A stretch of DNA of 64,000 bases from Nitrospirota bacterium (GCA_963818475.1 CAWFSF010000006.1:1472001-1536000); one strand, 5' to 3'; numbered from the stretch's first letter, positions 1,438 through 29,100 are shown. Made by a program: numbers and translations. Notes: a model not told the origin generated them from the letters alone.

Positions 1438-1462
1438 CATATCAGCACCCGTGTGGTACAAT
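1434..1462 (+). promoter_or_regulatory. hflX promoter, extended -10
   Basis: TG-G-TACAAT at 1454-1462; TTTTCA 17 bp upstream. Confidence 0.55.
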
Positions 1463-1498
1463 AGAGCGGTATTGCATGCTGTTGCCAAAGGAGCCGCC

Positions 1499-3155
1499 AT
1501 CTCAACCGTTCATGGAAACATAGCCGGGCTTAAACCCGCGGAAATCAAGACACTGGAACGGCTTTATCGGAGAAAGAACCCTCCAAACACGCTGATCACG
1601 CCTGAAGCAGGCCGTGCGCTGACCGAAGCGTCATCGGCGATCAACAGACAGGTCGGTCTTATCATTGACCGCTCCGGCGCCGTCAAAGACGTGCTGGTCG
1701 GTTCCGACCGCGACATTCTCATTCCCGATCTTTCCGCATACCGGCTCGGCACGCGCCGCCTTCGCGGGGTCCGGTTCATTCATACCCATCTGCGAGACCA
1801 GCCGCTGAACCAGGAGGACCTCACCGACCTGGCGCTCCTCCGGCTCGACATGATCGCCGCGCTTACGGTCCGGCCTGACGGCCTGCCCGGCGCCATCTCC
1901 GTTGCCCATCTGGTGCCGCCGAACCAGGACCAGAAGCTCTACGAGATCCTCCCGCCCCGATCCATTCACGAGCTTGACCTCGATGCAGCCAACTTTATTG
2001 CCGAGATCGAACGTGAGATGGAGCGTGCCCAGACTGCGGTCGCAGTCGGAAAAAAGGACCGTGCCATACTGGTCAGCGTCTCTAAAAAAGGCCGGTCCGA
2101 GCAGGAAGAATCGATCGAAGAGCTCAAGGAACTCGCCCGGACGGACAACATCCAGGTGCTGGATGCCGTGATCCAGCGGCCCCATGACATCAATCCCCGG
2201 TTCCTGCTCGGCGAGGGGAAGCTCAAGGAGCTCATCATCCGCTCGCAGCAGCTCGGCGCCGACCTTATTGTCTTCGACCAGAACCTGACCCCGGCCCAGG
2301 TGAGGTCCATCGGCGATATGACCGAGATGCGCGTCATCGATCGCACGCAGCTCATCCTCGATATCTTTGCGCGCCGTGCACACAGCGGCGACGGCAAGGT
2401 CCAGGTCGAGCTTGCACAGCTCAAGTACCGCATCCCCCGCTTGTCGGAGCGTTCGACCGCGCTTTCGCGCCTCACCGGAGGCATTGGAGGCAGGGGCCCC
2501 GGCGAGACCCGCCTCGAGATCGATATGCGGCGGGCGACGGGACAAGCTGCGAAGGCTTGAAAAGCAGCTCGAAGCACTCGGCAAGGCGCGTCACCAGCGC
2601 CGGGAGCGGCGTGTCCGGAGCGCCATTCCCATCGTTTCGATCGCCGGGTACACCAATGCCGGCAAATCCACCCTTTTCAACACGCTGACAAGGTCCGCTG
2701 TTACGTCCGAGGACCTGCTCTTTGCGACGCTCGACACCGCAACGCGGAGGCTCCGTTTTCCGCGTGACCGCGAGGTGGTCATTACCGACACCGTCGGATT
2801 CATCAAGGACCTGCCGAAGGACCTGCTGGGTGCATTCCGCGCCACGCTCGACGAGATGCAGGATGCGGACCTGATCGTGCATGTCGTGGACATCAGCAAT
2901 CCCCGGTTCGAGCATCAGATGGAGTCGGTGGACAAATTGATCCTCGAACTCGGCCTTGACCATATCCCGCGGCTGGTCGTTTTCAACAAGGTCGATCTCG
3001 TGAATCCCCTCTGGGCGAAGGTCATCGCAGCTCGTTTTAACGGCGTCGTCTGCTCGGCGATACATCCGGAGACCTTCGGAGCTTTACTGGGGGCTATTGA
3101 GAAGAGGCTTTGGGGGGAAGAGAGTTCGGGGTCAGGAGTTCAAAGTTCGGAGTAA
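1499..3155 (+). CDS. hflX: GTPase HflX, long form with N-terminal extension; frameshift near 2540 (probable sequencing error); probable ATC start
   Basis: [48 protein letters not shown] motifs split across ORFs 1451-2560 and 2367-3155. Confidence 0.93.
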
Positions 3156-3243: not shown

Positions 3244-4588
3244 TCACTTCCCGCCGATCGACAGTTCCCTCACGCGAAGCGACGGGCAGTTGATCCTGCC
3301 GGTGAACCTGAGGTCACTGCCCACAGCATCGATGTTTTTCATAAGATCAAGGATGTTGCCCGCAATCGTGATCTCGCGCACGGGATAGGCCTTTCTCCCG
3401 TTCTCGATCCAAAACCCGGTGGCGCCCACGGAAAAATCTCCCGATATGGGATTGGCGGTATGGATCCCCATCACCTCGGTGACATAGAGGCCGCTGCTGG
3501 TGGCGCTGATAAGCTCGTTCAGCGAGTAAGGGCCCGGCTCGACATAGAGGTTCGTCACGCCGACCATCGGCACTCCCTTAAACCCGCCGCGCATGCCGTT
3601 CCCGGTAGAGAGCGTCCTGTCCTTGTTGGCAGAATAGGTATTATAGAGGAACAGGGTGAGCCTGCCCTTGTCGATGACCGTTTTTTTCTTCGTGGGAACG
3701 CATTCATCATCGGACGGTGCAGTGCCGAGACCGCCCTCGAGCAGGCCGTCGTCGTACACCGTGATGAGCGGTGAAACGACCTCCTGACCCAGTTTCCCGA
3801 TGAACAGGGACTTTTTCTTTTGCACGTTCTCCGCCGAGAAACCGCTGGCCATGATCGCCAGGAATTCCTCGGCCACCAGGGCATCAAGGATCACCGGCGC
3901 CTTGACCGAACCAATCGTTTTCGCGCCGAGCAGATCGAGCGCCCTGCGCGCGGCGCGCCGTCCCACCTCTTCGATCCCGAGCTTGCGGTAAAACCTGTTC
4001 ACATCGAAGTCCGAACCGGCCTGCGATTCTCCCTGGTCCTCGGCAACCACTTCAATGCTCGACGAGGCTGCCGTGCCCTGGTACGAAACCAGCGCTCCGT
4101 GGGTATTGGCGATGATCGTCTCTGAAGACGAGAAGCTCGCCGATGCTTTTCGCATGCGCTTGATCCGCGGGTCGACGGCAAATGCCTCGCGTTCCATGGC
4201 CATAACGCGTTCGATCTTCTCTTTTTCGGATAATTGCGGTATCTCAGGATCGAACATGGCCACTGACCGGTAGGGCATCGACGGCTTTTCAGGAATGGCG
4301 TGGAAGGGATCGGGTTCGGTTGTGCGGGCGTTCGTAACGGCAGCTTCGGCCAGGACCGCGAGGGCGCTTGTCCGATAGATCGGTCGTAAAGGCAAAACCC
4401 ATGTGCCCGTTCACCAGCACACGCAGGCCCGCCCCGATATCATGAGCGCGGTCGAAGGCATCGACCTTCTGTTCTTTTACTTCAATGGATGTGGCACGAT
4501 AAGAACGGAGATAGACCTCTGCGGCATCAGCATGAAGGGACGAAGCTAGCGTGAGGATCTTATCGGCGGTCTGCGGGGTGATAACCAT
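3244..4588 (-). CDS. pmbA: TldD/PmbA family protein (PmbA/TldE type); frameshift near 4370
   Basis: AEVYL...GAGLRVLVNGHMGFAFTTD in ORF 4289-4624; DDECVP, STGNG, NPISGDFSVG..G.WIENG, EITIAGN in ORF 3244-4395. Confidence 0.88.
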
Positions 4589-4703
4589 AGTAAATACCGT
4601 TGGACCAATGTGCTCCGTCCGCAATGACAGGACAAACCATATTCTTTGATGATCCGGCTGGATTCGACGTCATGCACCGCCGCAGTGCTGCGGCCATGAC
4701 CAT

Positions 4704-5072
4704 TTAGTCGAAGTAGCTGGCCGACGCAGTATCGGACTCCCATACCGTGACGCTCGCGACTTCGAGATCGTCGCCGTTGAGCTTCTTCGCCATGGTGTCG
4801 TAGATCCACTTGGCAAGGTTCTCCGACGAGGGATTGATCTGCGTGAACGGAAAGATATCGTTGAGGAATGTGTGCTCCAGCTGATCGAGCACCTCACGCA
4901 GGGACTTTTTGAGATCGTGAAAATCGACGGCAAGACCGATATCGTTCAGACGCTCGGCCGTCACCGCGATCGTAACGCGCCAGTTATGGCCATGCAATTT
5001 CTCGCATTTTCCCTGGTAACCGCGCAACTGATGTGCAGCGGCAAATTTAGATTCTATCATAAGTTCGTACAT
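4704..5072 (-). CDS. queD: 6-carboxytetrahydropterin synthase
   Basis: FAAAHQL, KCEKLHGHNW, LEHTFLND, NPSSENLA, VWES motifs. Confidence 0.93.
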   Translation of the reverse strand: MYELMIESKFAAAHQLRGYQGKCEKLHGHNWRVTIAVTAERLNDIGLAVDFHDLKKSLREVLDQLEHTFLNDIFPFTQINPSSENLAKWIYDTMAKKLNGDDLEVASVTVWESDTASASYFD

Positions 5073-5079
5073 GCCGAAA

Positions 5080-5108
5080 ATAATAAGTGATATACGATCA
5101 AATGTCAA
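5080..5108 (-). promoter_or_regulatory. queD sigma70 promoter (leaderless geometry)
   Basis: TTGACA-17-TATTAT, 7 nt before ATG, no SD. Confidence 0.7.
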
Positions 5109-5161
5109 CACTAAACAGCCGGACGTGTTCCGGGTCCGGGCGTCATGGGAAGAAATATTTC

Positions 5162-5190
5162 TTGCAAATGAAGCTGAATTCAGATATCAT
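5162..5190 (+). promoter_or_regulatory. sigma70 promoter of hfq cluster
   Basis: TTGCAA-17-TATCAT, 7 nt before ATG 5198. Confidence 0.6.
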
Positions 5191-5197
5191 TTTTTTA

Positions 5198-5669
5198 ATG
5201 GAAGTGATGAAAGAAGAGTCGCGGCACACGATCGAACCACAGTTCCTGTCCCAGGCGCAAACAACCGGTGTCAGGGTTCGTATCGGCTTGATGAACAAGA
5301 CGGAACACGAAGGGATCATCCGCGATATCGGACGCTACGAGCTTAATCTCGAAGAAAACGGCAGAACGGTCACGCTGTTGAAGCAGGAAATTTCCTTTGT
5401 GGCCGCCCCCCACGCACTCATTGCCTCTCCTTCAGCTGCTACGCCGCAGGAACTGCCCGCTGCTGGAGTCTCCGGCAGGGAGACCAAATATCCAGCAGGA
5501 ATTTCTGGACAAAGCCATGGCCGAGAACCAGGTCCTTACCCTTTTTCTTATCAACGGCCAGCGGATCAAGGCGAACATCGAGGCATACGATAATTTCACG
5601 GTCCTGCTCAATGAAGGGGGCAGGCAGCACCTCTACTATAAACATGCGATCACCACGATCAATCGCTGA
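5198..5669 (+). CDS. hfq: tandem two-domain Hfq/Sm-like RNA chaperone; frameshift in linker near 5480
   Basis: Domain 1 IEPQFL...VRIGLMN...GIIRDIGRYEL...LLKQEISFV; domain 2 NIQQEFL...LFLINGQRIKANIEAYDNFTVLL...HLYYKHAITTI. Confidence 0.75.
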
Positions 5670-5814
5670 CGCAGTATCCCTCTGAAAGTGTATCAGGTCA
5701 ATGATGGACAGGAAGATCGAACAGGCCAACAGAACCGCATCCAGGATCCCGCCTCAGTGCGCCGTCGTGCTGTTCCGATGTTCATCTGCAATCCTTCCCC
5801 GGTGAGGTACCCCC

Positions 5815-6219
5815 ATGGAAACGAATCTCCTCGATAGAATGCTGAGCTCCTACATGGCCGAACAGTCATCAGTGACGGTCACGCTTCAGAACAAGATCAA
5901 GATCTCGGGAAAGATCAAGGCTTTTGACAGTTACGTCATCATGATGGAGAAACCGAAGCGCGAGATCCTGTACCGGCATGCCATCTCAAGCATCGCGCTC
6001 CACCTGCAGGAAGAGATAAAGCATGCCCCGGCAGCGCCCAGACCGGCATTGACCAACAAGCCGTCACCGGTGAAGACGCCGGCCAGATCAACCAGACCTG
6101 CAGCACCGAAACCCCGTCCCCAGCAGCCAGCCACGCCTGCCGCAGCGGATCAGAACGTCAGCAACAGCATGAAAGAAGGGCTGCTCCGCTGGATGCAGGA
6201 ACAAAAGGCGGCAAAATAG
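5815..6219 (+). CDS. divergent Hfq-family protein with Pro/Ala-rich C-terminal tail
   Basis: NLLDRML...VTVTLQNKIKISGKIKAFDSYVIMM...ILYRHAISSI. Confidence 0.8.
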   Translation: METNLLDRMLSSYMAEQSSVTVTLQNKIKISGKIKAFDSYVIMMEKPKREILYRHAISSIALHLQEEIKHAPAAPRPALTNKPSPVKTPARSTRPAAPKPRPQQPATPAAADQNVSNSMKEGLLRWMQEQKAAK

Positions 6220-6220
6220 C

Positions 6221-7757
6221 ATGAACCTCCGCACTGCGGCGCTGGCAGCCGTCTCAGGCCTGCTGTTGGCGGCTTCTTTTCCGACCATCCAGCTTCACCT
6301 TCTTGCCTGGTTCGCCCTGGTCCCCCTGTTCATCGCGCTCAAAGGCAGCTCCGTCAGGAACGGCTTCTGGACCGGGGGCATCACCGGCCTTGTCTATTTT
6401 GCCGGCACTGTGCATTGGGTCACCAATTCCGTCCATTTCTACGGCGGCGTACCGCTCATACCGGCTTCGCTGATCACCCTCCTGCTCTGCGCCTATCTTG
6501 CGCTCTACCCTGCCTTGTTCAGCGCGGCCCTGATACATATCAGAAAAAACCATCCGTCCCTGGCCTTCCTTGCGGCTCCTGCGCTCTGGACCGCACTTGA
6601 ACTGGCACGAACCTATGTGTTCAGCGGTTTCCCCTGGTCCCTGCTCGGGTATACGCAGTACACGGCGCTTCCCGTCATACAGATTGCCGACATCACCGGT
6701 GTCTATGGCATATCGTTCCTGATCGTGCTGGTGAATGCTGCCCTGGCCGAGCTGATTTTTGACCGCAAACGGTTCATTCCGCTGGTTGCGACGGGATTGG
6801 TCCTTGCGCTGGTACTTTCCTACGGTGTTCTGCAGCTCCGCACGCCCGAAGCAGAAGGAACCTTCAAGGTCGCGGTCATCCAGGGAAACATCGAGCAGGA
6901 CCAGAAGTGGGACCCTGCCTACCAGAAGCAGGTCACCAGCGTGTATGAACGGCTGACGCTCAAGGCCGCGAAGCTGCGTCCGGATCTTATCCTCTGGCCT
7001 GAGACCGCAACTCCTTTTTACTTTAACAGCCCGGGGAAGGCCGACCAGGAACAGACCGTCGACCTGGAGCGCTTCGTGAAAAGCAATCATGTTCCGATCC
7101 TGTTCGGAAGTCCCGACCTACGAGGTCCTTCCCGGAAGGGTGGTCCATCTCAGGAACTCGGCATTCCTGCTCTCCCCGGAAGGCGCGGCCCTGGCCGAAT
7201 ACCACAAGTTCCACCTCGTACCATTTGGCGAGTATGTTCCGCTCAAGAGTGTGCTTTTTTTCGTTGATAAAATGGTCCAGGCGATCGGCGACTTCCAGGC
7301 GGGCAGCGAATACACGGTCATGGCCGTTCCGGTCCCGGGTCAACAGGACGTGAAGGTCAGCACGGTCATCTGCTACGAGATCATCTTTCCGGACCTGGTC
7401 AGACGGTTTGTGAACAAGGGCGCCACGGTGATCACGACCATCACGAACGATGCCTGGTTCGGCCGCACGGCCGCTCCGTACCAGCATTTTTCCATGGCCG
7501 TGTTCCGCGCTGTTGAAAACCGCGTACCCGTGGCCCGCGCGGCCAATACCGGCATCTCGGGGTTCATCGACGCAAAAGGCAAGATTCTGCAGACATCCGG
7601 CATCTTTGTTGAGGCTGATCTCATGCAGGCGCTGGCCCCGGGCACCGTACGAACCTTGTATACCCGCTACGGGGATGTATTTTCGTACCTCTGCGTCATC
7701 TTCACGTTGACCGTACTTTCTGGATACCCTAAAAAGCCGCAGAGCAAAAAACGCTGA
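6221..7757 (+). CDS. lnt: apolipoprotein N-acyltransferase; frameshift near 7110
   Basis: GFPW..LGY, QGNI.Q..KW, WPETA, KFHLVPFGEY, ICYE, TNDAWFG, RAVEN, ANTGIS. Confidence 0.94.
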
Positions 7758-8949: not shown

Positions 8950-11328
8950 TTACTCAACCATGTTTGTCACAACATCCCTCACTGCTGATCGGCCGTGGTC
9001 GTCCACAGCGCGCACCACGAACCTCCCCGGCTCCGGCTTCCAGAAGAATACCTTACCGCTCTCTGAACTGCCGAGATATTTCTCGCTCATAAACCAGTGA
9101 ATGGTCTTCGAGTCTGCATCGGTGACTGCCGTTAATGGCACGCGCTCGTCTTTGAACGACCCTGCCCTAAGACTGTATACAACTCCGTCCCGTGGAGAGG
9201 TGATCTGCGGTCCTGTTCCTCTGGATGACATCACTTCGTTGCTGCATCCCGGCTCGTAAGGAGGCGGCACGCGGCGCGGGACGCCGGCCTGCCGGAATAT
9301 CGCTATAAGATCGGACGGCCAGAACTCGTATACTTCGGATCTCGTCCTGGGGCCGCCATCAATGCAGGAGCGCAGGCCCGTCCGGCTGTTTATGGATATC
9401 CTTCGGTGAACGTCGCATTTCGCAATCGGTGACGTGCCGGGAATGAACCAGGTGGATGCCCGCTGTGTGCAATCGGGACCCGGAAGCCCGCCTGACAGGG
9501 CGCAGACCTCGACCTTGGTCAGGTTCAGTTCCGCCAGTCCCTTTCCGCTAAACTCATCGATCTCCGAATCCTCGGACTTAAGCGAGTCTATGATCTCGAA
9601 GAAAAGCGGCGCTGCCGCTTCCCGGCCAACAAAGGCGGGATTGCCTTCTCCGTCGAAGTTCCCGATCCAGACCGCCAGCACGTAAGGCCCGACAACCCCC
9701 ACCGACCATGCATCACGAAACCCGAAGGAAGTGCCGGTCTTCCAGGAAACAGGTAAATGGTCCCGGATCCATTCCGGGCGAAATCCCTGAAGCGGATTGG
9801 GATTAGCTGAAAGCATATCGAGCACCAGGTAGCTCGCCTCTTTGCTTAAAAGCCGCGCCCCCTCTTCTTCCTTTTGGGACTTAAGGAACTTGAATCCTTT
9901 CAGCTCGCCCCCGTTCGCGAGCATCGCGTAGAGCTGCGCCAGCTCTTCCATAGAAACCTCCGCACTCCCCAGGGCCAGGGACATGCCGTAAAAGGACTCA
10001 TCGCGCATGCGCGTGATCCCGGCCTTGAGCAGAAACCCGTGCAGCCCCGGTGAAGCGAGACGCGATGTAATCTCAACAGCCGGCACGTTCCTGCTCTTCA
10101 CCAGCGCGTCCTTCGCCTTGATCGGTCCAACGAAATCGTTGTCGAAATTCTCGGGATTGTAAGAGCCGAAGCTCATGGGCGCATCCTTGAGCATGGTCAT
10201 GGGATGGATAAGCCCCTGGTCGATCCCAAGGCCATAGATGAAGGGTTTCAGGGCCGATCCCGGAGAACGCTTCGCCCGTGCCCCGTTCACCTGGCCGTCG
10301 ATCTTTTGATCAAAGAAGTCAGCAGAACCTACCAGTGATTTTACTTCAAGGGTCCGATGGTCAACCAGAAGGACTACGGCGTTATTGACCCCCTTCGGCC
10401 TGTTCGCTTCGACATAGCTTTTCACATGCCGTTCGATGAGTTTTTGGAGCCTGAGATCGAGCGTGGTGTGGAGCACCGGATCAAAGGGATCAAGCTCGCG
10501 TACTTCGTTCGCAAAATGCGGAGCCAGGAACGGCAGGTCAGACGGTCGTTTGAGAACGATAGGCGCGTCCACGAAAGACTTCTGGTCCTTGTCTTTCGGA
10601 TACTTCCCGACCCATTTGGCGAAAAGTACCTTACGCGCCTGTTCGAGACTCTGGTACGCAGGCATCCCATCCTCCCCCCTATTCCCCATCCGCTTCGCCG
10701 GGCTTTGCGGTATCACGCTCAAAGTAAGCGCATCGGTGAGCGTGAGCTTGTCAGCGTTTTTATGAAAGTAGATAAGACTCGCAGCGCCGGCACCTTCGAT
10801 GTTCAGGCCATAGGGTACGAGGTTGAGATAGGCTTCGAGGATATCGTTCTTGGAATAAAGCAGTTCCAGCCAGAAAGCTGCAAGGATCTGCGTTGTTTTG
10901 CCGGAGATCGTGCGGGAGTTGATGTCGTATTTGATACGCGCAAGCTGCATGGTGATCGTGGACCCGCCGATCTTCCGGTCCTTCTTGATATAGGTGTGCC
11001 ATATCGCGCGGCCAAGTGACGCCGGGCTCACTCCCGGATGAAACCGGAACCACTTGTCCTCGTGCAGGAGCGTGGCATTGATCAGGACCGGCGAAATGGC
11101 TTTGAGCGGCAGCCAGAGGCGATATTTATCGTCCCGCGAAAGCGTTAAGCGAATGAGATTCCCGCTTCGGTCATAGATCGCCTGGGAGAAGCTGACGTCG
11201 GATCTGAGAGCGGGGGAAAAGAGGCGGAGAAGGATGAGAATGGTTAATAATGCAACTGCTATACGGGCGAAGCGCATCACTAAATGCGCCACTGCGAGCA
11301 GTTTGTATCGCGGGGCCGATCCGGTCAA
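8950..11328 (-). CDS. pbpC: penicillin-binding protein 1C
   Basis: EDKWFRFHPGV, GGSTITMQLAR, RSPGSALKPF (SxxK), SRN, KTGTSFGFRDAW, BiPBP_C-type C-terminus. Confidence 0.94.
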   Translation of the reverse strand: MTGSAPRYKLLAVAHLVMRFARIAVALLTILILLRLFSPALRSDVSFSQAIYDRSGNLIRLTLSRDDKYRLWLPLKAISPVLINATLLHEDKWFRFHPGVSPASLGRAIWHTYIKKDRKIGGSTITMQLARIKYDINSRTISGKTTQILAAFWLELLYSKNDILEAYLNLVPYGLNIEGAGAASLIYFHKNADKLTLTDALTLSVIPQSPAKRMGNRGEDGMPAYQSLEQARKVLFAKWVGKYPKDKDQKSFVDAPIVLKRPSDLPFLAPHFANEVRELDPFDPVLHTTLDLRLQKLIERHVKSYVEANRPKGVNNAVVLLVDHRTLEVKSLVGSADFFDQKIDGQVNGARAKRSPGSALKPFIYGLGIDQGLIHPMTMLKDAPMSFGSYNPENFDNDFVGPIKAKDALVKSRNVPAVEITSRLASPGLHGFLLKAGITRMRDESFYGMSLALGSAEVSMEELAQLYAMLANGGELKGFKFLKSQKEEEGARLLSKEASYLVLDMLSANPNPLQGFRPEWIRDHLPVSWKTGTSFGFRDAWSVGVVGPYVLAVWIGNFDGEGNPAFVGREAAAPLFFEIIDSLKSEDSEIDEFSGKGLAELNLTKVEVCALSGGLPGPDCTQRASTWFIPGTSPIAKCDVHRRISINSRTGLRSCIDGGPRTRSEVYEFWPSDLIAIFRQAGVPRRVPPPYEPGCSNEVMSSRGTGPQITSPRDGVVYSLRAGSFKDERVPLTAVTDADSKTIHWFMSEKYLGSSESGKVFFWKPEPGRFVVRAVDDHGRSAVRDVVTNMVE

Positions 11329-13826
11329 GAGGTTCTCTCGATCTGCCGGAGGATCGTTTCGTCCTTGATCTGGCGGTCCTGTGCAAGAAGGAATGCCTTG
11401 CTCAGAATGATCGCGAACATCTGGTCCCCTTCGAAGGGCAGGAAGACCTTTTCAGCCTTCCCCTTTCCCGTGCTCCGGTCCGGCACAATGCAGAGGTACT
11501 GGTCATTCGGCTCCATGAGGATATTGCCGCTCCCCAGGTGGATCTTGTAAGTCCGCAGATCGCCCCTCACCTTGAGGAACTTGCCGTCGATAGCGCATTG
11601 ACCGGCAATGGCAAGCCGCGGCAGGAGGCGCATCATCACGTCCTTCCTGGTCTCGGCCTGCGCCGAGAGATCGCCGAAGGAATAGCGCTGCCAGTAATCG
11701 GTTCCGCCGTCCCGGGCCGCGCCCTGGTCCTGCCACTGAGGATCGTTGCCCACGCTGCAAACGCCCACGAAGAGATCGATGTCGCGCATGATCTCGGTAA
11801 AGGCAAGGGCGGGTACATCCGACAGCGGCAGCTGCCCGCCCTGCAGGTTCGTAAAACGCACCTGGTCGGTCGACACATAGAGATAAATGCCGGATTCCGA
11901 TTGCTGATCATCGGCAGGCACGGACTCCACCCAGAATTCGGCCCGCAGTTCCCACTGGGGTAGTTCGATCACCGGCGTATTAGCGGAATCCCAGCCTCCC
12001 TGCAGCTGGTACTTCCATCCGCGCTGCTTGCAGAGGGCGCTGAACTGGTGTTGTTTCAGGATATGGGCGGCGAAGCGGTTCGAGTAGGTCCCTGTTGCGA
12101 GCTCGGCGTCCGTCAGGAGGTAGAGTTCCCGGTGAGCCTGCTTGAAGGGCTGGGAGATACCGTGCCGTTCGAGCCATAAACGCCATTCCTGCACGGTGGT
12201 AACGTCGAACCCGACCGGATGCCACAGCCGGACGACGGTGTCGCTGCCCTCCCACTCCTCGGTCCTGTCCTGCGCATCCACCAGCCGGTCTTCTCTCAGG
12301 GCCGCCAGGCCCGATCTGCCCTGTCGTTCAAAGTGCCAGATAAGTCTCCGGGAGAGCTGGGCAAGGAGTGGATGGTCCAGGTAACGCTCGCGCCAGAGGG
12401 GGTATGACAGGCTTCTCTGCGACAAAAAGAGCCGTTCGATGCGGTCGCGCTGGGCGGGCAGCATGTTCTCGATGTCCTTGACCGTGCGTTTAAGCGAGGC
12501 AAGCTCTTCGCCAAACTCCTCCCGGACCGCGGCAGGAACTGACTTCTGGGTCTTGCCGTCCTTCTTTATCCAGATGAGCTCGGCATCCGCCGTACCGGTG
12601 ACGCGGACCTCCGCCGCATGCTCGCCCAGGTCCTCGTGAAGAATGCCCTGTCCTTCCAGCCCGAAGGTCGGGACCGCGATCTCCTCCAGGTCGGCGCGTG
12701 TCATGCCTGCCCGGGCGGCTGTCTCTTCAAGCGCAGTATTGATCAGTGAATGGACCTTGGAATACTTCACCTTGAGCTGCAGGCGGGAGAGCTGGGCCAC
12801 CGGTTCCAGGCCGGGGAGCCTGCTCAGGACATAGATGCAGGCATTGCCGACCTTCACGGAACGGGGGCCGATACCGGGGATCTTCTTGAACACAGCGAGT
12901 GCAACGTCGCAAATGGCCTGGCACGATGATGCATCAGAGGTGGCCGCACAGTACCAGATCAAACCCTTGAGAAGGTCGGCCTTGGCTTCGGTCATGGGTT
13001 CGCCGGTCCCCTTCTCCGCCGTCGCGAACCATCCGGTTACCCGTTCCTTGAAAGTCTCGGCCCCCGCTGCTTCGAGTCTGCCGCGCGCTTCCTCCATCCA
13101 TTTTCCCGAAGCCTCGGAAGACCTGATGGCAAAGGCATGTTCGATGAGCCGCTGCCACGCAGCCGCGTTGGCCTCATCCATCGCTGACAGGTCCGCGAGC
13201 ATCATGTCCGTCCAGGGTTCGCCCGGCTCGATAACATTCTTGCGCACATCCCCGAGCAGCAACCCGATACGCTTGGCAAGCTTCCGCAGGTCCGCGCAAT
13301 CCGGTGTCGCAAGATGCTTTTTCTTCAGGTCATCGAGACCCCGATGCAGGTCCTCGGACAGGCCGGCGCGCGTCGCATGGCGCTCGATCTGGGTCACTAT
13401 GGGACGCAAGGTCGATTCCAGATACAGGACCTGCCGCTGCTCCTTGAGACCGTCTACGATGTATCTAAGGTCCTGTTCCGAAAAAGGAAGACGGGAATGC
13501 AACAGGGCCGAAAAAACCTGCAGATTGATATCGGTGACGTAATAAGGGTTGTCCTGGGTGGACTGAAAGGCCATGCGGTCGAGCAAAGCCAGCACGATCC
13601 GGACCTTGACCTCCGGGGACGCAGACAGCAGTAGACGGCCGGTTTCGTGCGCCTTGGGGTCCCTGTTCCAGTGGTACGGCTCTTCCTGCGTGATCACCTG
13701 GCCGAGGTAAGCGTTGATGGCGAGATGCTCCTCCCGGCGGGGATCGTCCGGCATGAGCGGATACCCGTCAGGACCCACGGCTTCCGGCTTGTCCTGCTGC
13801 TTGAAGATATCGAAGAACCCTTTCAT
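11325..13826 (-). CDS. DUF4132 domain-containing protein (833 aa)
   Basis: Helical N-half, then YLDHPLL..L.RRLIW, LWHP, QPFKQAHRELY, YSNRFAAH, F.EIMRDIDLFV, YKIHLGSGNILM, LPFEGD. Confidence 0.85.
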   Translation of the reverse strand: MKGFFDIFKQQDKPEAVGPDGYPLMPDDPRREEHLAINAYLGQVITQEEPYHWNRDPKAHETGRLLLSASPEVKVRIVLALLDRMAFQSTQDNPYYVTDINLQVFSALLHSRLPFSEQDLRYIVDGLKEQRQVLYLESTLRPIVTQIERHATRAGLSEDLHRGLDDLKKKHLATPDCADLRKLAKRIGLLLGDVRKNVIEPGEPWTDMMLADLSAMDEANAAAWQRLIEHAFAIRSSEASGKWMEEARGRLEAAGAETFKERVTGWFATAEKGTGEPMTEAKADLLKGLIWYCAATSDASSCQAICDVALAVFKKIPGIGPRSVKVGNACIYVLSRLPGLEPVAQLSRLQLKVKYSKVHSLINTALEETAARAGMTRADLEEIAVPTFGLEGQGILHEDLGEHAAEVRVTGTADAELIWIKKDGKTQKSVPAAVREEFGEELASLKRTVKDIENMLPAQRDRIERLFLSQRSLSYPLWRERYLDHPLLAQLSRRLIWHFERQGRSGLAALREDRLVDAQDRTEEWEGSDTVVRLWHPVGFDVTTVQEWRLWLERHGISQPFKQAHRELYLLTDAELATGTYSNRFAAHILKQHQFSALCKQRGWKYQLQGGWDSANTPVIELPQWELRAEFWVESVPADDQQSESGIYLYVSTDQVRFTNLQGGQLPLSDVPALAFTEIMRDIDLFVGVCSVGNDPQWQDQGAARDGGTDYWQRYSFGDLSAQAETRKDVMMRLLPRLAIAGQCAIDGKFLKVRGDLRTYKIHLGSGNILMEPNDQYLCIVPDRSTGKGKAEKVFLPFEGDQMFAIILSKAFLLAQDRQIKDETILRQIERTS

Positions 13827-13836
13827 GTGCGCCCCC

Positions 13837-14229
13837 TCATCCTCCCACCAGTGGGACGAGCTTCAGAAAGCTCACCTGCGTTCCCGGCTTCAGCTCCACA
13901 ACGTGCTCGAGGTCTTCGACCTGGCGGTCATCCACGAGGACGAGAAAACTGTTCTTCTGGAATGCCTCAAGAGCGACCTCGTACTGCTGCTGCCAGTCTA
14001 TGGCGCGTTTCTCGCGAAGTTTGTACCCGTTCAGGACGGCTTCTGCATCGGAAGGTTGGATGAGCCCTTTGAAGCAGCCCGGCTTGCTGAAGTTGAACAG
14101 GCGCACTTCTTCGTACACCCTGCTCCGTATCAGCTCACGGACAGATACGGTCTCCTCCAGGAAGTCGAGTGAAATCTCGTTCACCACCTGCCCGTTCGAA
14201 AGTTCGTCACGTATCAAGAGAGTTGTCAT
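13837..14229 (-). CDS. ubiquitin-like (putative beta-grasp) protein ending in LVPLVGG (130 aa)
   Basis: GGAAGGAG RBS; SVRELIRSRV...FLVLVDDRQV.DL....L..GTQVSFLKLVPLVGG resembles the C-terminus of MoaD/ThiS/Ubl proteins. Confidence 0.75.
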   Translation of the reverse strand: MTTLLIRDELSNGQVVNEISLDFLEETVSVRELIRSRVYEEVRLFNFSKPGCFKGLIQPSDAEAVLNGYKLREKRAIDWQQQYEVALEAFQKNSFLVLVDDRQVEDLEHVVELKPGTQVSFLKLVPLVGG

Positions 14230-14354
14230 CGTATCGCTCCTTCCCATGATGATTCTGATTTCATACGAAGCACGGAAAGAACTCCTTTATCGTTTCCGCG
14301 AACAACGAGGTCGTCAGTATGGGACTGTATGGGGTATCAGCTATCAGAAATCTA

Positions 14355-16933: not shown

Positions 16934-17981
16934 TTACTTCTTAAGAGAGTGAACAATCCACTGCTCAATTTCAGGCAAGTACTTCGGACTCACTAACATG
17001 ATCTCCAAAATGGCCATATATTGGTCGGGTCCATATAAGTGTATCCTCATCTGGGATAGTCTTTAAAACATCATAGGCTTGCGGAGATAGAAGTAAAAGC
17101 GTCAAGTTATCATTCACTTGCCTCCCTTTAAGAAGACTGGTTAGCGCGTCATAGTCGTGGAAGGAGTATCCGACAGCAAGCACGATTTTGGCATGCTCGC
17201 AACATCTGGAGAAATAGTGATAGGCGGTCAAATAAGGTTCCGCTGTGGTCACTTTGTTACCAGCTGGATAAATAACTGTATTCTGGTACGCATCTGAGTC
17301 AACAACATCATACATTGGCAGAGATTGGACAATCCTCCCACTAGATGTTATTTTCAACCAATTCACCGATCCGTGAAGCTTGTGAAGGACAATGTGACGA
17401 ACCGGACGGGTGATATTAAACAACTCAAAGTTTCTTGGATTCCAGAAATGTTCTCGCAGAAAGGGGTCATCTTCCATACCATCAACAAAGTCATATTTGG
17501 AGTATTGTTCATTGCAAAAATTTTCAATTGCCAGATCATAGTTCGTAGTGAAGATAGGTAAGCACTGAGTAGCCGAATCGATATGGGAGAAGATGACATC
17601 AAGCAAAGGCTGATAAACCTCAATAGCCCTTTTAATATCAACAGCTCGGTACTCTCGAATAATTGAATGACGAATAAGAGAGCGTAAGCTTGCTGCGTCA
17701 CTTCTTTTGACTTCGTACGCAGGCTGATTTTCGACATCTAAAACGAAAGACGACACATACTGTAAATTTAAGAAAGTCTCGAGGTCTCCCATAATAGACT
17801 CCAAGTCATACCCCCTGGCTAATATGAGTGCTGAAAGAAGAGATGCCTCGTTGTCAGACGTAATCTCAGTGGCGAGCTTCTTTACAAATTGTTCCATTGT
17901 AGGCTTGCCGAGAGGTACGGAAGCCCCGGCACCGAGAAATAGAATGATAGGTGATTGAGTAATGGTTGGGTTTAATGGCAT
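16934..17981 (-). CDS. SIR2-family (SIR2_2-like) protein; last ~15 codons probably frameshifted (called ORF stops at 16971)
   Basis: ILFLGAGAS, IFTTNYD, KLHGSVNW, VIYP..NK, VGYSFHD; alternative frame KYLPEIEQWIVHSLKK* ends 16934. Confidence 0.88.
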
Positions 17982-18044
17982 AATTATTGTGCGTGAACTT
18001 CCATATCTCGATTATTTTTCTATATTGTTTTTTAGGAAGGGATT

Positions 18045-20397
18045 TTATGCCTTCCCGTATCTCCAACGCAATGACCGCATTGGCACTGGACGAGTTCTGC
18101 GCCTGTGTCATCAAGCTTATAAACGGGTTTTTTGCAGTTCGGGCAGCTAAAAAACTCCAATGCCCTCTCACACACTTCAATGAGCTTGGCCTCCTTCTTC
18201 ACTACGTCAAAAGAATGAGTGGCCTTGTTTCCCCACGAGAGCAATAGCTTATCTGCATCGCGTAATGCATCAATCGCCTCGGCGTAAGGTTCATGCTCTT
18301 TCGTGCCTAACTTCATGAAGCACTTTTTACTATCTGAAATGAACTGGAGGAGGAAGTCGTGTGCTGTTCGACGATCGTTCTTCTCGCGGTAAAGGTAGGG
18401 CAGCCTGACCTTGACTCGCTCGGCCACTATGGCGAGTTCTATGTCCATGATCTTGCGCGCTGTGTTTCCAGCGGAGTCTGGTGAAACCTTTAATTGCGCT
18501 CGTGCATCGTCGAACGTTGATGTCTTAGCGGACAAACGGATACCGACTTCAGGCTTCTCGTAGGGCATGAGAGCGTTAAAAATCCAGTTTCCACCGTCGA
18601 GCTGCTGTCTGAGTTCCGTGTACCACTCTCGGTCGTGAGTTAATATGACCACCTGCCGACCGTTGAACTCTTTTTCCAAGAGATCAACGATCATTCCACG
18701 ATGGTTCCGGTCAAGACTGATGACCACATCATCCAGAAACAGCGGCCGGTCCGTGTCCGCTTCGCGCTTCGCCATTGCAAGGAAAATACAGAGACCAAGG
18801 CTATTTCTATAGCCCTCCGAAAGCGTGAGTCTTGGTGAGTCCTGTTCAATTCCATAGAATTTAAGTCCGATGTCGATGGCCTTGTCGGCGTCACTGGGGA
18901 GATAAAGGCGCACATGCGCAATTGCCTCGCCCGGGTGCAGGATTGCCCACATTTTCTGAATGTCGGAGGAAATTTCACCGATCACATTCTTAGACTGCTG
19001 TCTGATTTCCTCTCGGACGCCTTGCTCAAGTAAATTTAGGAATGAAATCAGGGCTCGAGCGCGTGTCGCGTCGTCGGCCAGCATCTTCGACTCAATTACG
19101 GCTTTGGCAGCCTCAACAATCTGTTTATCGGTTGAAAACTGCTGGACGTCAGGCGGGGCGATACCTGCGGATGAAGACGCTGCGGCTATCAGAGTCAACA
19201 GATTATTCTCAATGCCCACCAGATCGTTTTCGCCGCAAGAGGCACGGAGCGACTCAACATGAGCCCATCAATGTACGCGAAGTTATCGGAGAAGGCCTTC
19301 TTGTTGAGTCCGTCTCGCCATGACTTCACATCAGATTTGCTCAGATTAGACCTTAGAGACGTGAGGATGTCGCAAAGAGATCCGATAGCGGCCTTGCGAT
19401 TGTTGAAGATGTTAATGATCTCTTGAAGGCGCTCTTTCTCAGACTTGACGTGTGTCTTAAAATCATCGACTGAGATTGCTCGTCCACAGGCTGGACATTT
19501 TACAGCTTTTTCTTCTTTTAGTTTGTCCACAAAGATGCCTGCGGATTGGAGCACCTCCAGCTTTTCAGCGATCAGCGGCTCCATTGTACTGGATAACTTG
19601 TGACTTTCGGAGCGCACTTCATCGACGTGACTCTTGAGGTTTAGACCAGAGATAGCCTGCAAAGTAAGGTGTCTCCTCTGCTCAGCGGAAGAATGAATGA
19701 TCCGTTCTTTGAGTGCGGCTTCAAACTCTTTGCAGTGAGAAAGTGGGTCCGTCGTGGTCCCTTTGCCCTCGCAGTACTTTGCATGAAGGTCTGCGATCAT
19801 CTTATAAATTTGTTCGTCGGTGGCCGCACCAAAGGTAGTACTCCTTTTTGACGCGACCTCCCTAAGAGCAGCCGTTGCCTGCCAGAGCTTTGATTCTTGC
19901 TCTACGGACTTTGAGAGCTGCCGTAAATTCTCAGCTGCCACTTCCATGTGGTGAAGACCGAGAAGTGGCAGAAGTGTCGAGTATTTTTCTCCCTTGGTAT
20001 CTTGGATGAAAGACGCGACCTCATCTTGCCTCAAGATTGTGCGCTGATAGTCCCACGTGGCCATCGAGGCAGTTTCTGATCCGGACCTCGTGAAGGATCC
20101 ATCTCGCTTGATCTCCCAAAGGAGTTCTGACGCATCTTTGAACTTAATACGCAGTCTTGTTTTCCTGCCCGCGGGTGTGTGCGTGTTGATGAGCGCCTTC
20201 TCTTGATGCTTCCCACTATACTCGTGTGATAGATGCCGAATCTTGCCGTTTTTGAGTACGAATTCAAGCGCGTCTACAAAAGAGGATTTACCAGACCCAT
20301 TCTCCCCGTAGAGAACCATCGACTTGGATTCGGGGACAAGAGAAACCGCTTCGGCTGCTCCACGGAACCATTCGATCTCAATGGCCTTAATCCTCAT
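18045..20397 (-). CDS. Rad50/SMC-like ABC ATPase with Zn hook and C-terminal extension; frameshifts near 19260 and 18075
   Basis: Walker A GENGSGKS, Q-loop ILRQ, coiled coil with CPACG, signature LSEGY, Walker B LFLDDVVISLD, ILTHD, terminal CPNC...CQCG. Confidence 0.85.
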
Positions 20398-20609
20398 TCT
20401 CTGCCCCCATTTTTTGCGGGTCCAGCGTGGACATATCGGCAATCAGCGCCTTGGCTGCGGTTGTCAGGTTCAGGCGAGCGGAGCTGCCGCTCGCTGAGTT
20501 GGCCTCTCAGTAGCTGTTTTATTCGGGTCGCGGTTGCGACTGTTATGGAAGCATGCGTCTTTTGAGCTTCTTCAACTCGTTTTGAGATCCAATCATCACT
20601 ATTAGACAT
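20394..20609 (-). CDS. small helical hypothetical protein coupled to ATPase
   Basis: AAGGTG RBS; MSNSDDWISKRVEEAQK...; stop overlaps ATPase start (ATGA). Confidence 0.6.
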   Translation of the reverse strand: MSNSDDWISKRVEEAQKTHASITVATATRIKQLLRGQLSERQLRSPEPDNRSQGADCRYVHAGPAKNGGRE

Positions 20610-26183: not shown

Positions 26184-29100
26184 TTACTTCTCTTTCTTTT
26201 CCTTCTTTATTTCCTTCGCTTCCTCCACCACCATCGTCCCCGGCAACGTCCTTGCCCGGACCGTCCGGTCATACATGGACTCGGCAAACGCCGGCGGGAT
26301 CACGTACTTGCCTTTGTTCGTCGCTTTGATCCGGTATACGAATTCCTGGGCAGAGTCGCCGACGCTGCCGAAGAGCACCACCCGGTCTTCCCGGATGTCC
26401 ACGAAGTCCGGCTGCCAGGTGGACGCGTCCGTTCCGATGGGAGAATCCCATTGTTTCCGGGTTTCCTGCTCCCCGGACCGTTCTTCTCCGCCTTCGCCCT
26501 CACTGTCGCCTTCTTCTTCGCTTCTCTGCTCCTGAACCTGTGCGGGCTCTGATGCAGGACGTGATTTTTCGATCACCACGTCGAACCCACCGGGCAGCAG
26601 GTCCACGATCGCCACGTTGCTGTGGTATCCGGACTTGACAGACCGCATCTTAAAGTGGACCTCTATCTCCGAGCCAAGGGCTGTTGACGTGATCACGTTC
26701 CCTTTGAGGTCCCGGTACTCGCGCTGGACCTCGATGCCTTCCTTGATCTCCTTTTGGGGGAGGGATTTGTCGAAGCCCGCCATCGTAACCTGATAGAACG
26801 TGGGAAAACCGCTCTTGCTCTCGATCCGCACCTTCTTAGCTTCACCTGAGAAAGCTGCCTTGGGGAAGAGTCCCTTCGGCAAGACAAGGTCCTTCATCCC
26901 CTTTTCAAGGATCTCCCTGATCTTGATCTCGGCAACGGCCTTCTCGCCTACTGCTTCAGCATAGGAGTCCATGGCAAGGATCGCATAAGCTGACGTTATG
27001 GTATTGAAACTGCCGCTCGATATGCCGTTCACGATGCACTCCATGCACAGCATGTCCCCTTCGGAGAACTTCTTGAACCGCTCGGGGAAGTGTTTTCCAA
27101 GAATATAAAGATGCTGAGAGTCATGGGCCAGGCTGTCGTAGAAATTGTCATAATCCGGGTCAACAGGTTGACCCATCTTCATTCCCGAGATGAGGTCATC
27201 AGCCTTTGAATCGAGTTTGAGCAGTTTATAGGTCGCAGCGAGATAAGACGCTGTAAGGTCCTTCTTCCACTTTTTCGTTTCCTTGGCCTTATCAAGCTGC
27301 TCGCGCATGGCATTCACATAGTCCGTGGTAACGACGCCGTTCCTGGTCAGGAGGTAGACCGCGTATGCGCCGGCGCGCGCCTTGGCAAGGGAATCGCTCC
27401 CAGTCATGCCCTTTTTGCCGATAGCGGCAAGATAGGCGAGACCGCGATCCATGAGCTCCTGCGGTACAACAAAACCACGTTCTTTCGCCTCGGTCAGGAA
27501 ATGCATGGCATAGATGCTTGCGTACTCCGAGACATGAGAGTTTGCTGCCCAGAACCCGAAAGCGCCATCCGCATTCTGGCGTGAACGCAGCACGCTGATC
27601 GTCTTCTCCAGGTTCTCCGCTGCCTTCTTGTGCGTGTACCCGAACTCCGGCCGGCTTTTGAGCACAATTGCCGGAAAGGCCATGCTCACGAGCTGCTCCG
27701 TGCAGAGATAGGGGAATTTATCCAGATATGCCACCAGGCCATGGGCCAAGCTGAGCGGTACGGGTGAGGCAGTGGCGTCCAGGGTCCTGAACTCGGGATG
27801 CATCCTCCGTTTCACCTCTACGTCCACTTTCCCGGATTTGAAAGATCCGCTCTTTACATCCGTCATGTACGGGATAGGAGGCCTCACGCTTGTCTCGATG
27901 GAATAAGCGGTCTTCTTACCTCCGACCGAAGCGGTAAAGGTGAAACGCGCCGACCCCAGGACCTCTTTCGCTTTGACCTTGAAGGATGCGCTCTCTTCCC
28001 TGCCTTCGACAATCTTGAGGATACGCTGCCCCTTGTCCAGTATCTCCAGATGCTCCGATGTAGAACAATCGAGATTTACTGCCGCGTCCTTGCCGGATCC
28101 CACTACATTATTGGCAACACTAACGGTAACAATGAACTCGTCACCCGGCGCTACAAAGGTCGGCACATTCGGACTCAGCACAAAATGGCCGCGCACAGCA
28201 GACCTTTTCTGGTTTGCGCCGATAGCGTCAGGAGCGACTGCCACTGCCATGACCCGGATCGTGCCGTTGAAGTAATCAGGCACGCGGTAGACCAGCTCCC
28301 GCATGGTAGGATCGATATTCACGATGCCTGACCAGTAGACCACGGGCTTGTCGCGCTTGCGTTTGAAGGGATTCAGGTTCTGGCCGAGCGCCTTGCCCTC
28401 TTCGTCCCCTCCCGCAGCCGAAAGCATCCGTACGATGGAGTTCTCGGGCATGATCAGGTCCAGGATCTGGGCTGTCTTCACCTCCAGCGCGCGCTTGCGG
28501 AAGAAATGCTCAAGCGGGTCAGGCGTCGTGTACCGGGCCACCTGGAGGATGCCCTCATCCACGGCATAGACAACGGCCTTGCCCGCCTTGTTCCCCTTGT
28601 AGCGTATTTTGAAGAGTTCCCCCGGCCGTGCGAGCTCGGGCGTATCGATGTCGATCCTGATAGTCCTTTTCCCGCGGCTCACCGAGAACGGCATCACGCC
28701 GTAGCTCAAGGGACTCATGAAAATTTCCTTTGAGTCGATGCCACGGACAAAAGAGACGTTCACGTACCCGTTCCCTTCGAAGGTGGAGGGAACGCGAATT
28801 TTCTGGACAGAGTTCGTTGCAGTCGTTTTAAACCACCTTGTCGCGTATACCTTGTCCCGCTCGATGGTGATGAGCCCGGCCCCGGTGTAGGGGGCGCGGA
28901 TCTGGAGCTCGATCTCCTCGCCGGGCGCGTAGTCGGACTTGTTCAGCTTGATCAACAGCTCGGCGTTCTTCTCCAGGCTCCGGGTGAGGTTCCCCATGCC
29001 GGCAACGCTGAAGGCAATGCGGCTGAGTTCTGCCTTCTTGTCATCCTGCACGATCAGGAGAAAATCTCCCGGGTTTGTTGTCGGCAGACGAAACTTCGTG

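Follow-up and report, generated by a model that had tools for sequence, protein, structure and literature searches.

A 64,000-nt stretch of the genome of a Nitrospirota bacterium (GCA_963818475.1 CAWFSF010000006.1:1472001-1536000; hereafter the window) carries on its minus strand a gene for a 130-aa ubiquitin-like protein (Ubl) with a free C-terminal VPLVGG, situated 10 bp 5' of a gene for an 833-aa protein that contains the Pfam domains DUF4132 and DUF7737 (Table 1). The small protein is a β-grasp Ubl with an exposed and conserved Gly-Gly end. The two genes form a widespread operon in which the large protein is an obligate partner, and in two phyla this operon lies behind promoter motifs of DNA-damage regulons, in line with published induction in Deinococcus radiodurans. 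In three Bacteroidota genomes the gene order is Ubl, partner and ThiF-type activating enzyme (E1), and the C-terminal domain of the partner probably resembles ubiquitin-conjugating enzymes (E2). We propose, tentatively, that this self-contained operon encodes a DNA-damage-response system composed of a Ubl and an E2-like protein and using an E1 in trans, with conjugation itself being a prediction; this reading is quite possible, if still somewhat doubtful. The gene pair had been picked out in an initial annotation of the same stretch, and its coordinates and C-terminal tail are borne out by the listing of open reading frames (ORFs).

The ubiquitin-like protein

From its first ATG the small ORF spans 13837..14247 (136 aa, minus strand) and terminates in FLKLVPLVGG. 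The start at 14229, which gives 130 aa, is preferred because GGAAGGAG lies 7 nt before this ATG and because homologues have the corresponding length, 94 of the 120 best being 130-131 aa. Database relatives number 2423 at E ≤ 1e-3. A GG C-terminus is found in 117 of the 120 listed homologues, and VPLVGG in 104; the three without GG end in LV, SR, and GV, of which two fall short of the others in length (108 and 125 aa). Both G129 and G130 are invariant in an alignment of 29 sequences. Longer proteins matching the Ubl are few (three of 230-309 aa, P0121-P0123, among 647 longer candidates), which weakly suggests that the Ubl is a stand-alone protein.

The AlphaFold2 (AF2) model of the Ubl, made with the 29 sequences, has a pLDDT (predicted local distance difference test) of 76.6 and the element order strand-strand-(strand)-helix, a poorly predicted segment at residues 48-78, a helix at 79-91 and three strands. 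In a structural search with VIA, all of the best 50 rows were β-grasp proteins and 169 chains reached Z ≥ 5, led by human MoaD (Z 8.2, root mean square deviation [rmsd] 3.8, 79 residues aligned); SAMP1 (Z 7.2) and bacterial BubA (Z 6.5) were also matched. The best Foldseek rows were ubiquitin, SUMO, NEDD8, ISG15, Urm1, MoaD, and SAMP1, with E-values of 8.5e-3 or weaker. At the sequence level, the Ubl matched no Pfam, NCBIfam or PADLOC family at E ≤ 0.01 (ThiS, MoaD, ubiquitin, and Prok_Ub all being unmatched), and a profile search of the PDB sequences gave no Ubl match at E ≤ 10. The initial annotation had supposed a β-grasp fold behind the diglycine tail, and the structural matches and the conservation of GG agree with this. 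It had also postulated a helical insertion relative to ThiS and MoaD: one extra helix (79-91) is indeed predicted, and the remainder of the insertion is a conserved loop modeled with low confidence. This insert contains invariant residues (L56, P59, A62, E63, and G68), and its pLDDT falls below 50 at residues 50-53 and 57-73. Because it is conserved yet of low confidence in the model, the insert presumably becomes ordered only when a partner is bound.

Pairing with the DUF4132 protein

A scan of one genome per species revealed at least 582 relatives of the Ubl among 600 pattern matches. The best 80 of these, all from other species, were analyzed as loci (L, G, and C numbers below denote loci, genomes, and contigs); they span Armatimonadota, Planctomycetota, Verrucomicrobiota, Gemmatimonadota, Cyanobacteriota, Chloroflexota, Acidobacteriota, Bacteroidota, Actinomycetota, and Deinococcota. 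The DUF4132 partner is represented by a homologue in 76 of the 80. In 67 loci the partner gene overlaps the Ubl gene or begins within ~80 nt downstream of its stop codon on the same strand; in five it is directly 5' of the Ubl gene (the match in L025 covering only a 210-aa piece), in three it lies 0.9-1.3 kb downstream, and one arrangement is irregular (L038). The Ubl is at a contig end in two of the four loci without a partner (L032 and L060), and the other two (L052 and L074) have 2.1-2.7 kb of downstream sequence with no match. All-against-all clustering of the ORFs from the 80 loci found no real third family in more than seven loci. The seven-locus family is a sensor kinase, ranks 2-5 are shadow frames of the partner gene, and the remaining families are transporters and similar proteins. 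The pairing noticed in the initial annotation thus recurs across phyla, far more often than chance would allow, with no other gene conserved alongside.

Whole-genome comparisons give the same picture of an obligate partnership. Among 125 Deinococcaceae genomes the Ubl was found in 64 and DUF7737 in 60, all of which have the Ubl; the four Ubl-only matches lie on contigs numbered 208-462 of fragmented assemblies. Among 151 Streptomycetaceae genomes, 36 have the Ubl and 42 have DUF7737, which is present in all 36 Ubl genomes; two of the six DUF7737-only cases are small fragments. Three DUF7737 genes with no adjoining Ubl gene were inspected, and each genome carries a Ubl gene elsewhere. The distribution of the module is patchy, and DUF7737 was found in none of 20 relatives of the Nitrospirota genome.

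The order partner, then Ubl, was seen in L009, L025, L029, L035, L056, and L151-L156, which include some Planctomycetota, one Verrucomicrobiota locus (L025, partial) and some Streptomycetaceae. In one Streptomycetaceae contig (L156), two tandem partner genes precede a single Ubl gene. Genes for a MoxR-type AAA ATPase and DUF58/vWA proteins occur within 8 kb of the pair in four of the 80 loci (L022, L031, L058, and L073), an arrangement reminiscent of the MoxR/vWA genes that adjoin the DUF4132 genes of E. coli. Literature searches outside subscription journals and supplements returned no account of a Ubl-DUF4132 pairing, and the pair may represent an undescribed ubiquitin-like stress pathway of bacteria.

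The partner protein and its C-terminal domain

Pfam assigns DUF4132 (E 3.4e-50, 170.9 bits) and DUF7737 (E 2.1e-41, 140.5 bits; cut-off 27) to the partner; NCBIfam and PADLOC gave no match to either protein of the pair. Homologues of the partner are 36-50% identical over their full length in an alignment of 41 sequences, and for the C-terminal 454 residues identity rises to 43-60%, some 50 positions being invariant in an alignment of 63. The four polar motifs that the initial annotation had singled out (QPFKQAHRE, SNRFAAH, EIMRDID, and YKIHLGSG) are present in the translation and occupy invariant or near-invariant columns in both alignments.

The AF2 model of partner residues 380-833 has a pLDDT of 87.5. 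When this model was searched with VIA, its first part resembled a PH/PTB-like sandwich (Z 4.2-4.7) and its middle a TBP/KA1-like domain (best match 2pww, Z 7.0). For model residues ~340-454 (719-833 of the full-length protein), which correspond to DUF7737, the matches are dominated by chains of E2, ubiquitin E2 variant (UEV), RWD, and Atg10 type. These account for 20 of the 50 best rows and, of the 23 rows aligned to this region, for 20, with Z of 4.0-5.0, rmsd of 3.2-4.7, and 75-99 residues aligned. They include UBE2J2 (Z 5.0), FANCL (4.8), E2S, E2E1, and Pex4 (4.6), Ube2K, Atg10, and a chain of a bacterial E1-E2-Ubl complex (4.5), as well as UbcH5, UbcH10, Ubc9, Ubc13, the RWD domain of GCN2, and the UEV domain of Tsg101. 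The entry titles name 17 of the 20 rows as such; the remaining three, FANCL, FTS, and Ltn1, we take to be of the same type. The argument for an E2-like fold thus comes from the enrichment of one fold among the rows, not from any single Z-score.

The modeled order of elements in DUF7737 (helix, four short strands, loop, helices) is that of the ubiquitin-conjugating (UBC) domain. In E2 enzymes, the active cysteine follows the last strand and precedes the next helix. Cys779 of the partner lies between the model strand 397-399 and the helix 423-436, and is invariant in all 63 sequences, as is His763 in the motif YKIHLGSGN. A His and a Cys separated by 16 residues are found in all of 150 cluster representatives from a family of 2734 clusters, and both are kept in the 1626-aa Deinococcus form of the protein (HLGSG and FLCIVP), where the Asn of the motif is replaced by Thr. 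On the basis of the model, DUF7737 probably has a UBC-like fold, and the statement of the initial annotation that no E2 is nearby is probably wrong. A catalytic role for Cys779 is conceivable, with doubt slightly prevailing. A Foldseek search of the PDB with the C-terminal half of the partner returned nothing at E ≤ 0.001, and the ESM Atlas yielded no usable match to the DUF7737 part. A complex prediction with the full partner and the Ubl scored ipSAE 0.20 and 0.18 (mark 0.32), which counts neither for nor against an interaction.

The partner also exists in a long form. In Deinococcus (L114, G059:C2, 2885-7765), a DUF5724 region of 1140 residues precedes DUF4132 and DUF7737, and open frames of ~1670-1720 aa encode a long-form partner in six of 11 Bacteroidota loci.

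The link to an E1

A BLAST search with ThiF of the Nitrospirota genome against all ORFs of the 80 loci found matches in two, L078 and L077, which are also matched by the Pfam ThiF model (230.6 and 210.1 bits, respectively). In L078, from a Pedobacter genome, the ThiF gene (11002..11712) starts in overlap with the stop codon of the partner gene at 11002, and in L077 too the ThiF gene begins at or overlaps the end of the partner gene. A sample of 401 Bacteroidota genomes contained 11 real DUF7737 loci, two of which have an E1 gene directly downstream: the genome of L078 and G386, where the E1 gene overlaps the partner gene by 4 nt. In the latter (L179, G386:C97, 650-2474), the Ubl gene is truncated at its 5' end: the remnant begins 38 nt after an IS66-type transposase gene and lacks the first 49 residues. 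Both genes downstream, for the partner and the E1, are intact. The order Ubl, E2-like partner, E1 is therefore found in three Bacteroidota genomes, and this adjacency is the best argument for adenylation of the Gly-Gly end.

In the window, the initial annotation had noted no E1, JAB, rhodanese or sulfur-cofactor gene, and a Pfam scan of 59 window ORFs accordingly gave no match to ThiF, an E2 family, JAB, rhodanese, MoaE or ThiG. The Nitrospirota genome contains two ThiF loci, of which the only intact one (G000:C6:791,994) is ~690 kb from the pair. It lies in a cluster (L113, G000:C6:788000-797000) with genes for TusA, a Prok-JAB protein, a pyridoxal phosphate (PLP) enzyme, and a ThiS-family protein, which is a sulfur-carrier pathway of the protein-thiocarboxylate type. 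Since this ThiF is 36% identical to the E1 of L078, it could serve the pair in trans. The "non-canonical chemistry" invoked in the initial annotation is unneeded, given a ThiF-type E1 behind the pair in three genomes and a ThiF elsewhere in the same genome.

Promoter motifs of DNA-damage regulons

In D. radiodurans, the DUF4132 gene DRA0166 forms an operon with drA0165 that belongs to the DdrO regulon. According to the accessible text of PMC8533742, this operon is strongly induced on DdrO depletion, a radiation/desiccation response motif (RDRM) is listed at -83 for drA0165-drA0166, and the supporting evidence comprises ChIP-seq, RNA-seq, and a mitomycin C Western blot, tagged DRA0166 protein rising after mitomycin C in the wild type and not in an irrE mutant. 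The published 20-nt DRA0165 site occurs as a single exact copy in a Deinococcaceae locus (L110, G059) and is followed 82 nt later by a 134-aa ORF with the C-terminus LTALAGG. A thioredoxin gene lies upstream of this ORF, and a 1626-aa DUF5724+DUF4132+DUF7737 gene follows 3 nt downstream. The Ubl profile matches the 134-aa ORF with an E-value of 2.0e-8 and its closest kin in other genomes with E-values down to 1e-12 over residues 17-131. Because of the identity of the site and the profile match, DR_A0165 is, by sequence criteria, a divergent member of this Ubl family.

DR_A0165 has been studied independently as 'SEP068184'. Gamma rays and H2O2 induce it, it pulls down Trx1, and a structural prediction resembled molybdopterin synthase (PMC9650054, accessible text). 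The same text states that DR_A0165 has no RDRM and is confined to Deinococcus; judged from the Ubl profile matches and the exact 20-nt site, both statements are contradicted.

An RDRM-like palindrome recurs across the family. Among the Deinococcaceae loci, TTATG-N7-CATAA with at most two mismatches is found within 200 nt upstream of the Ubl gene in 23 of 27, with both short and long forms of the partner, against a background of 10 other such sites in the remaining ~91 kb of these loci. The RDRM palindrome also occurs in a Meiothermus locus (L021, a perfect copy) and in L064.

In Actinomycetota a different motif is frequent upstream of the Ubl gene. The PafBC promoter motif has been described as tGTCgg(N10)tA(N3)T with a strictly conserved GTC (PMC8635444), and the same motif has been named RecA-NDp (PMC6789036), as far as the accessible texts of both papers go. 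A strict version, TGTC(A/G)G-N10-TA-N3-T, precedes the Ubl start in 29 of 41 loci and a looser one, GTC-N12-TANNNT, in 34 of 41; at least one genome enters the 41 twice, as L079 and L120. Strict sites number 31 in 573,760 nt (both strands), and 29 of these are upstream of the Ubl gene. The association with the PafBC motif is frequent, not universal, and the induction that it would imply is a prediction. SOS boxes of known types were sought upstream of the Ubl gene in the 80 loci, and a single exact GAAC-N4-GTTC was found (L012, Chloroflexota), with no general pattern. A similar palindrome was seen by eye in L006. The E. coli DUF4132 gene molR is said to be in the LexA regulon (PMC8533742, accessible text).

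Two further upstream elements were observed. Pairs of CTGATA words no more than 5 nt apart occur at six sites in the 4.66-Mb Nitrospirota genome, one upstream of the Ubl gene (14310-14350, minus strand) and one upstream of recA; this double word may be regulatory or may simply be a repeat. The recA site has a near-copy in front of a 170-aa ORF that appears to encode a Mut7-C-type domain (positions listed for the motif are G000:C5:62253 and G000:C6:816954). All four Rubrobacter loci (L037, L043, L061, and L075) have in common two CGTACG-like words, separated by 5 nt and located ~40-60 nt before the Ubl gene, and this may reflect shared ancestry only, because the genomes are closely related.

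Proposed mechanism and alternatives

In the proposed mechanism, a ThiF-type E1 would adenylate the Gly-Gly end of the Ubl. This E1 would be encoded in the operon in a few Bacteroidota and in trans in most genomes, including the Nitrospirota one (G000:C6:791,994). The E2-like domain would then accept the Ubl on Cys779. Target selection or regulation of this step may fall to the partner's helical N-terminal half and DUF4132 core, and targets would finally be modified. Charging by the E1, transfer to Cys779, and target modification are all steps that we infer. The fullest version of the proposal is that at least ten phyla share a minimal damage-induced Ubl conjugation system, in which one protein would be both the E2 (with DUF7737 as a new UBC-like family and Cys779 as its cysteine) and the substrate selector, and the Ubl would be charged by a housekeeping ThiF/MoeB-type E1 borrowed from sulfur metabolism. 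Taken as a whole, this version is somewhat unlikely and is put forward with corresponding caution.

Several observations weigh against conjugation in response to DNA damage. As to the E2-like domain, Z-scores of 4.0-5.0 are at the level usual at rank 50 in VIA. DUF7737 has no HPN motif, which would be expected 7-8 residues before the Cys, and the His of HLGSGN is 16 residues before it. A Pfam search at E ≤ 10 with 63 DUF7737 domains returned no E2-type family, merely chance-level extras, PDB sequence searches with the partner and with DUF7737 gave no match, and hhalign against four Cap2-like Prok-E2_B sequences, which make a thin profile, gave a probability of 0.1%. Cys779 would be the equivalent of the E2 cysteine by inference from the model rather than by residue-level superposition. 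As to the other components, BLAST with ThiF of the Nitrospirota genome detected no E1 in 78 of the 80 loci and BLAST with its JAB detected no JAB-like protease in the 80, so that most operons appear to be without two classical parts. The regulatory link also has gaps. Six Streptomycetaceae loci with the order partner-then-Ubl have no PafBC motif before either gene (six of the seven actinomycetal loci without the motif have this reversed order), and upstream of the Nitrospirota Ubl gene no recognisable damage box was found, the palindrome TTTCGG-N7-CCGAAA that lies upstream of lexA being absent there. In D. radiodurans, the DR_A0165 knockout survives H2O2 better, and the same 157 proteins co-purify with N- and C-terminally tagged DR_A0165 (PMC9650054, accessible text), which argues against those interactions requiring a free GG end.

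One alternative is a non-covalent complex, in which the Ubl is an obligate subunit with its Gly-Gly tail in a pocket of the DUF4132 protein, as that of MoaD is in MoaE, and the E2-like domain is a non-catalytic binding module of UEV/RWD type within a damage-induced scaffold or sensor. Such a complex is consistent with MoaD as the best structural match of the Ubl, with UEV and RWD domains among the matches of DUF7737, and with the lack of an E1 in 78 of the 80 loci and of a recurrent protease in all of them. The conserved, low-confidence insert of the Ubl suggests folding upon a partner, and many invariant polar residues of the DUF4132 core could line a pocket. We nevertheless consider this unlikely, since the Cys and His, both invariant in all 150 representatives, would be unusual for a pure binding module and since translational coupling of a ThiF E1 in three genomes points to chemistry at the carboxyl end. 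Such adjacency is equally typical of sulfur carriers and of conjugation systems, and the Ubl might instead be thiocarboxylated by a ThiF/MoeB-type enzyme and deliver its sulfur to the DUF4132 protein, with Cys779 as persulfide or acceptor, in a redox or damage-repair role. The folds closest to that of the Ubl include MoaD and ThiS-type carriers, the thioredoxin gene is directly upstream in the Deinococcus locus, and loss of DR_A0165, which pulls down Trx1, alters H2O2 survival (PMC9650054, accessible text). Even so, a sulfur-carrier pathway is very improbable: genes for a rhodanese, a cysteine desulfurase, MoaE, ThiG or a PLP enzyme are not recurrent neighbours of the pair, conservation of the thioredoxin gene does not extend beyond Deinococcus (third families reaching at most seven of the 80 loci), the Nitrospirota ThiF is already flanked by its own ThiS, JAB, PLP enzyme, and TusA, and the E2-like end of the partner is unlike known sulfur-insertion enzymes.

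A role in conflict, as favored by the initial annotation, would have damage signals such as prophage induction or phage attack induce the pair, which would then tag or disable the invader or the cell. The patchy distribution (the Ubl being found in 36 of the 151 Streptomycetaceae and 64 of the 125 Deinococcaceae genomes, and DUF7737 in 0 of 20 relatives of the Nitrospirota genome) would fit such a system, and in the accessible literature the known bacterial Ubl systems (Bil, CBASS Cap2, and Bub) are linked to defence. Suggestive genes occur near the pair in two places, namely a SIR2-like gene and an SMC-like ATPase gene with PADLOC matches 3-6 kb off in the window, and an integrase and an AbiEii-like gene flanking the pair in L078. 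However, neither protein matches any of the families of PADLOC-DB 2.0, and tblastn with the Ubl found no match in 50,697 phage records and four in 72,556 plasmid records, all of them large and non-mobilizable. The neighbours are not conserved, and the islet with the SIR2 and ATPase genes differs in GC content and looks separately inserted. With damage-regulon motifs in place of such support, a conflict system is quite improbable. We retain damage-induced conjugation, with an E1 acting in trans, as the tentative reading.

Comparison with known systems

Bil (BilABCD), CBASS Cap2/Cap3, and Bub resemble the present pair in that a small β-grasp protein with a reactive C-terminal glycine end is encoded beside a protein of E2-type fold. 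The structural matches include BubA and one chain from a bacterial E1-E2-Ubl complex, and ThiF E1 is part of the operon in three genomes. Unlike in these systems, 78 of the 80 operons have no E1, and genes for JAB or serine proteases are not recurrent; the E2-like part forms the C-terminal domain of a protein of 830-1630 aa and falls into no known E2 sequence family; and the setting is one of DNA-damage promoter motifs, not of defence islands. MoaD/MoaE and ThiS/ThiF share with the pair the β-grasp fold and the Gly-Gly end, MoaD being the top structural match. The Ubl differs from MoaD and ThiS in having no Pfam ThiS/MoaD match, in its length of 130 aa with a conserved 30-residue insert, and in having no adjoining MoaE, ThiG or sulfur-transfer gene.

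The SAMP/UbaA system of Haloferax and the TtuB/TtuC system of Thermus also have a Ubl whose E1 is encoded elsewhere, and SAMP1 is a structural match (Z 7.2). In both systems the E1 is shared with sulfur metabolism. We know of no E2-like protein in either, whereas an E2-like partner is obligatory here. The D. radiodurans pair drA0165-drA0166 is the same module in a divergent form, with a 134-aa ORF ending in AGG and a 1626-aa partner 3 nt on; its long-form partner is ~800 residues longer, and the tail is LAGG versus LVGG. The accessible texts of PMC8533742 and PMC9650054 draw no link between DR_A0165 and a Ubl/E2-type pair and treat it as Deinococcus-specific. MolR and YehI of E. coli have the DUF4132 domain in common with the partner, as seen from the matches in the E. 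coli control genome, which, unlike the pair's partner, gave no DUF7737 match. By analogy only, Rad6-Rad18/PCNA and FANCL-UBE2T likewise use a Ubl and an E2-type fold after DNA damage, FANCL being among the matches (Z 4.8); unlike in those systems, no RING/E3 was detected here, and there is no sequence relationship.

Features and neighbourhood of the locus

Table 1. Positions of the operon and its elements in the 64,000-nt window.
Feature	Position	Strand	Basis
Ubl gene, 130-aa β-grasp protein, free VPLVGG; stop codon 13837-13839	13837..14229	-	ORF, AF2 model, homologues
Shine-Dalgarno-like GGAAGGAG	14237..14244	-	7 nt upstream of ATG 14229
Conserved Ubl insert, residues ~48-78, absent from minimal ThiS/MoaD	13995..14088	-	Alignment and AF2 model
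10-bp intergenic spacer, operon-type spacing	13827..13836	-	ORF positions
833-aa partner gene: variable N-terminal half, DUF4132, DUF7737	11325..13826	-	ORF and Pfam
Pfam DUF4132, residues 424-604, with invariant QPFKQAHRE and SNRFAAH	12015..12557	-	Pfam, alignments
Pfam DUF7737, residues 724-829, predicted UBC/E2-like fold	11340..11657	-	Pfam, AF2 model
Cys779 codon, candidate active-site cysteine, context YLCIV	11490..11492	-	Invariant in alignments
His763 codon, invariant YKIHLGSGN motif	11538..11540	-	Invariant in alignments

Several ordinary genes of the window are split into two overlapping ORFs each: those for an HflX-type GTPase, PmbA/TldD, Lnt, an SMC-like ATPase, an alpha-2-macroglobulin, an XPD/DinG-type helicase, and KdpD (1451-3155, 3244-4624, 6221-7757, 18032-20442, 26184-32188, 34675-37054, and 52301-54887). 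So many split genes suggest frequent frameshift errors in the assembly (seven contigs, 91% complete). The Ubl and partner genes are intact.

The SIR2-like gene (16971-17981, minus strand) matches the PADLOC models Aga_SIR2/SIR2 with a best E-value of 1.2e-25. It adjoins a gene on the same strand for an ATPase of SMC/AAA_13/AAA_15 type, split into 18032-19219 and 19195-20442, with weak matches of LmuB/PDC-S06 type. This stretch has a GC content of 0.42-0.50, against 0.59-0.62 for the pair and its flanks, and because of the lower value looks like a separate insertion or defence islet; genes of these types did not recur among the 80 loci. In L078, genes for a tyrosine integrase, an AbiEii-like nucleotidyltransferase, and a small DNA-binding protein (4717-7465) are situated just upstream of the Ubl-partner-E1 operon, and the module may lie on an integrated element there.

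Implications

To our knowledge, all characterised bacterial Ubl conjugation systems (Bil, CBASS Cap2, and Bub) are tied to phage defence and carry their own E1. The pair described here is much more widespread, with at least 582 matching stretches at one genome per species and 2734 clusters of the partner domain, and usually comes without an E1 or a protease. Its upstream regions in two phyla carry promoter motifs of two DNA-damage regulators that are unrelated to each other. The analysis also corrects the two published statements that DR_A0165 is confined to Deinococcus and has no RDRM (PMC9650054, accessible text).

If the E2-like reading is true, DUF4132 and DUF7737 would gain a role, two unexplained and strongly induced genes of the radiation response of D. 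radiodurans would be explained, and Ubl tagging in bacterial genome maintenance would become directly testable in Deinococcus and Streptomyces, which are amenable to genetics. If conjugation takes place, the pair would represent a prokaryotic equivalent of the ubiquitylation that eukaryotes link to DNA damage, and possibly an intermediate between sulfur carriers and conjugation systems.

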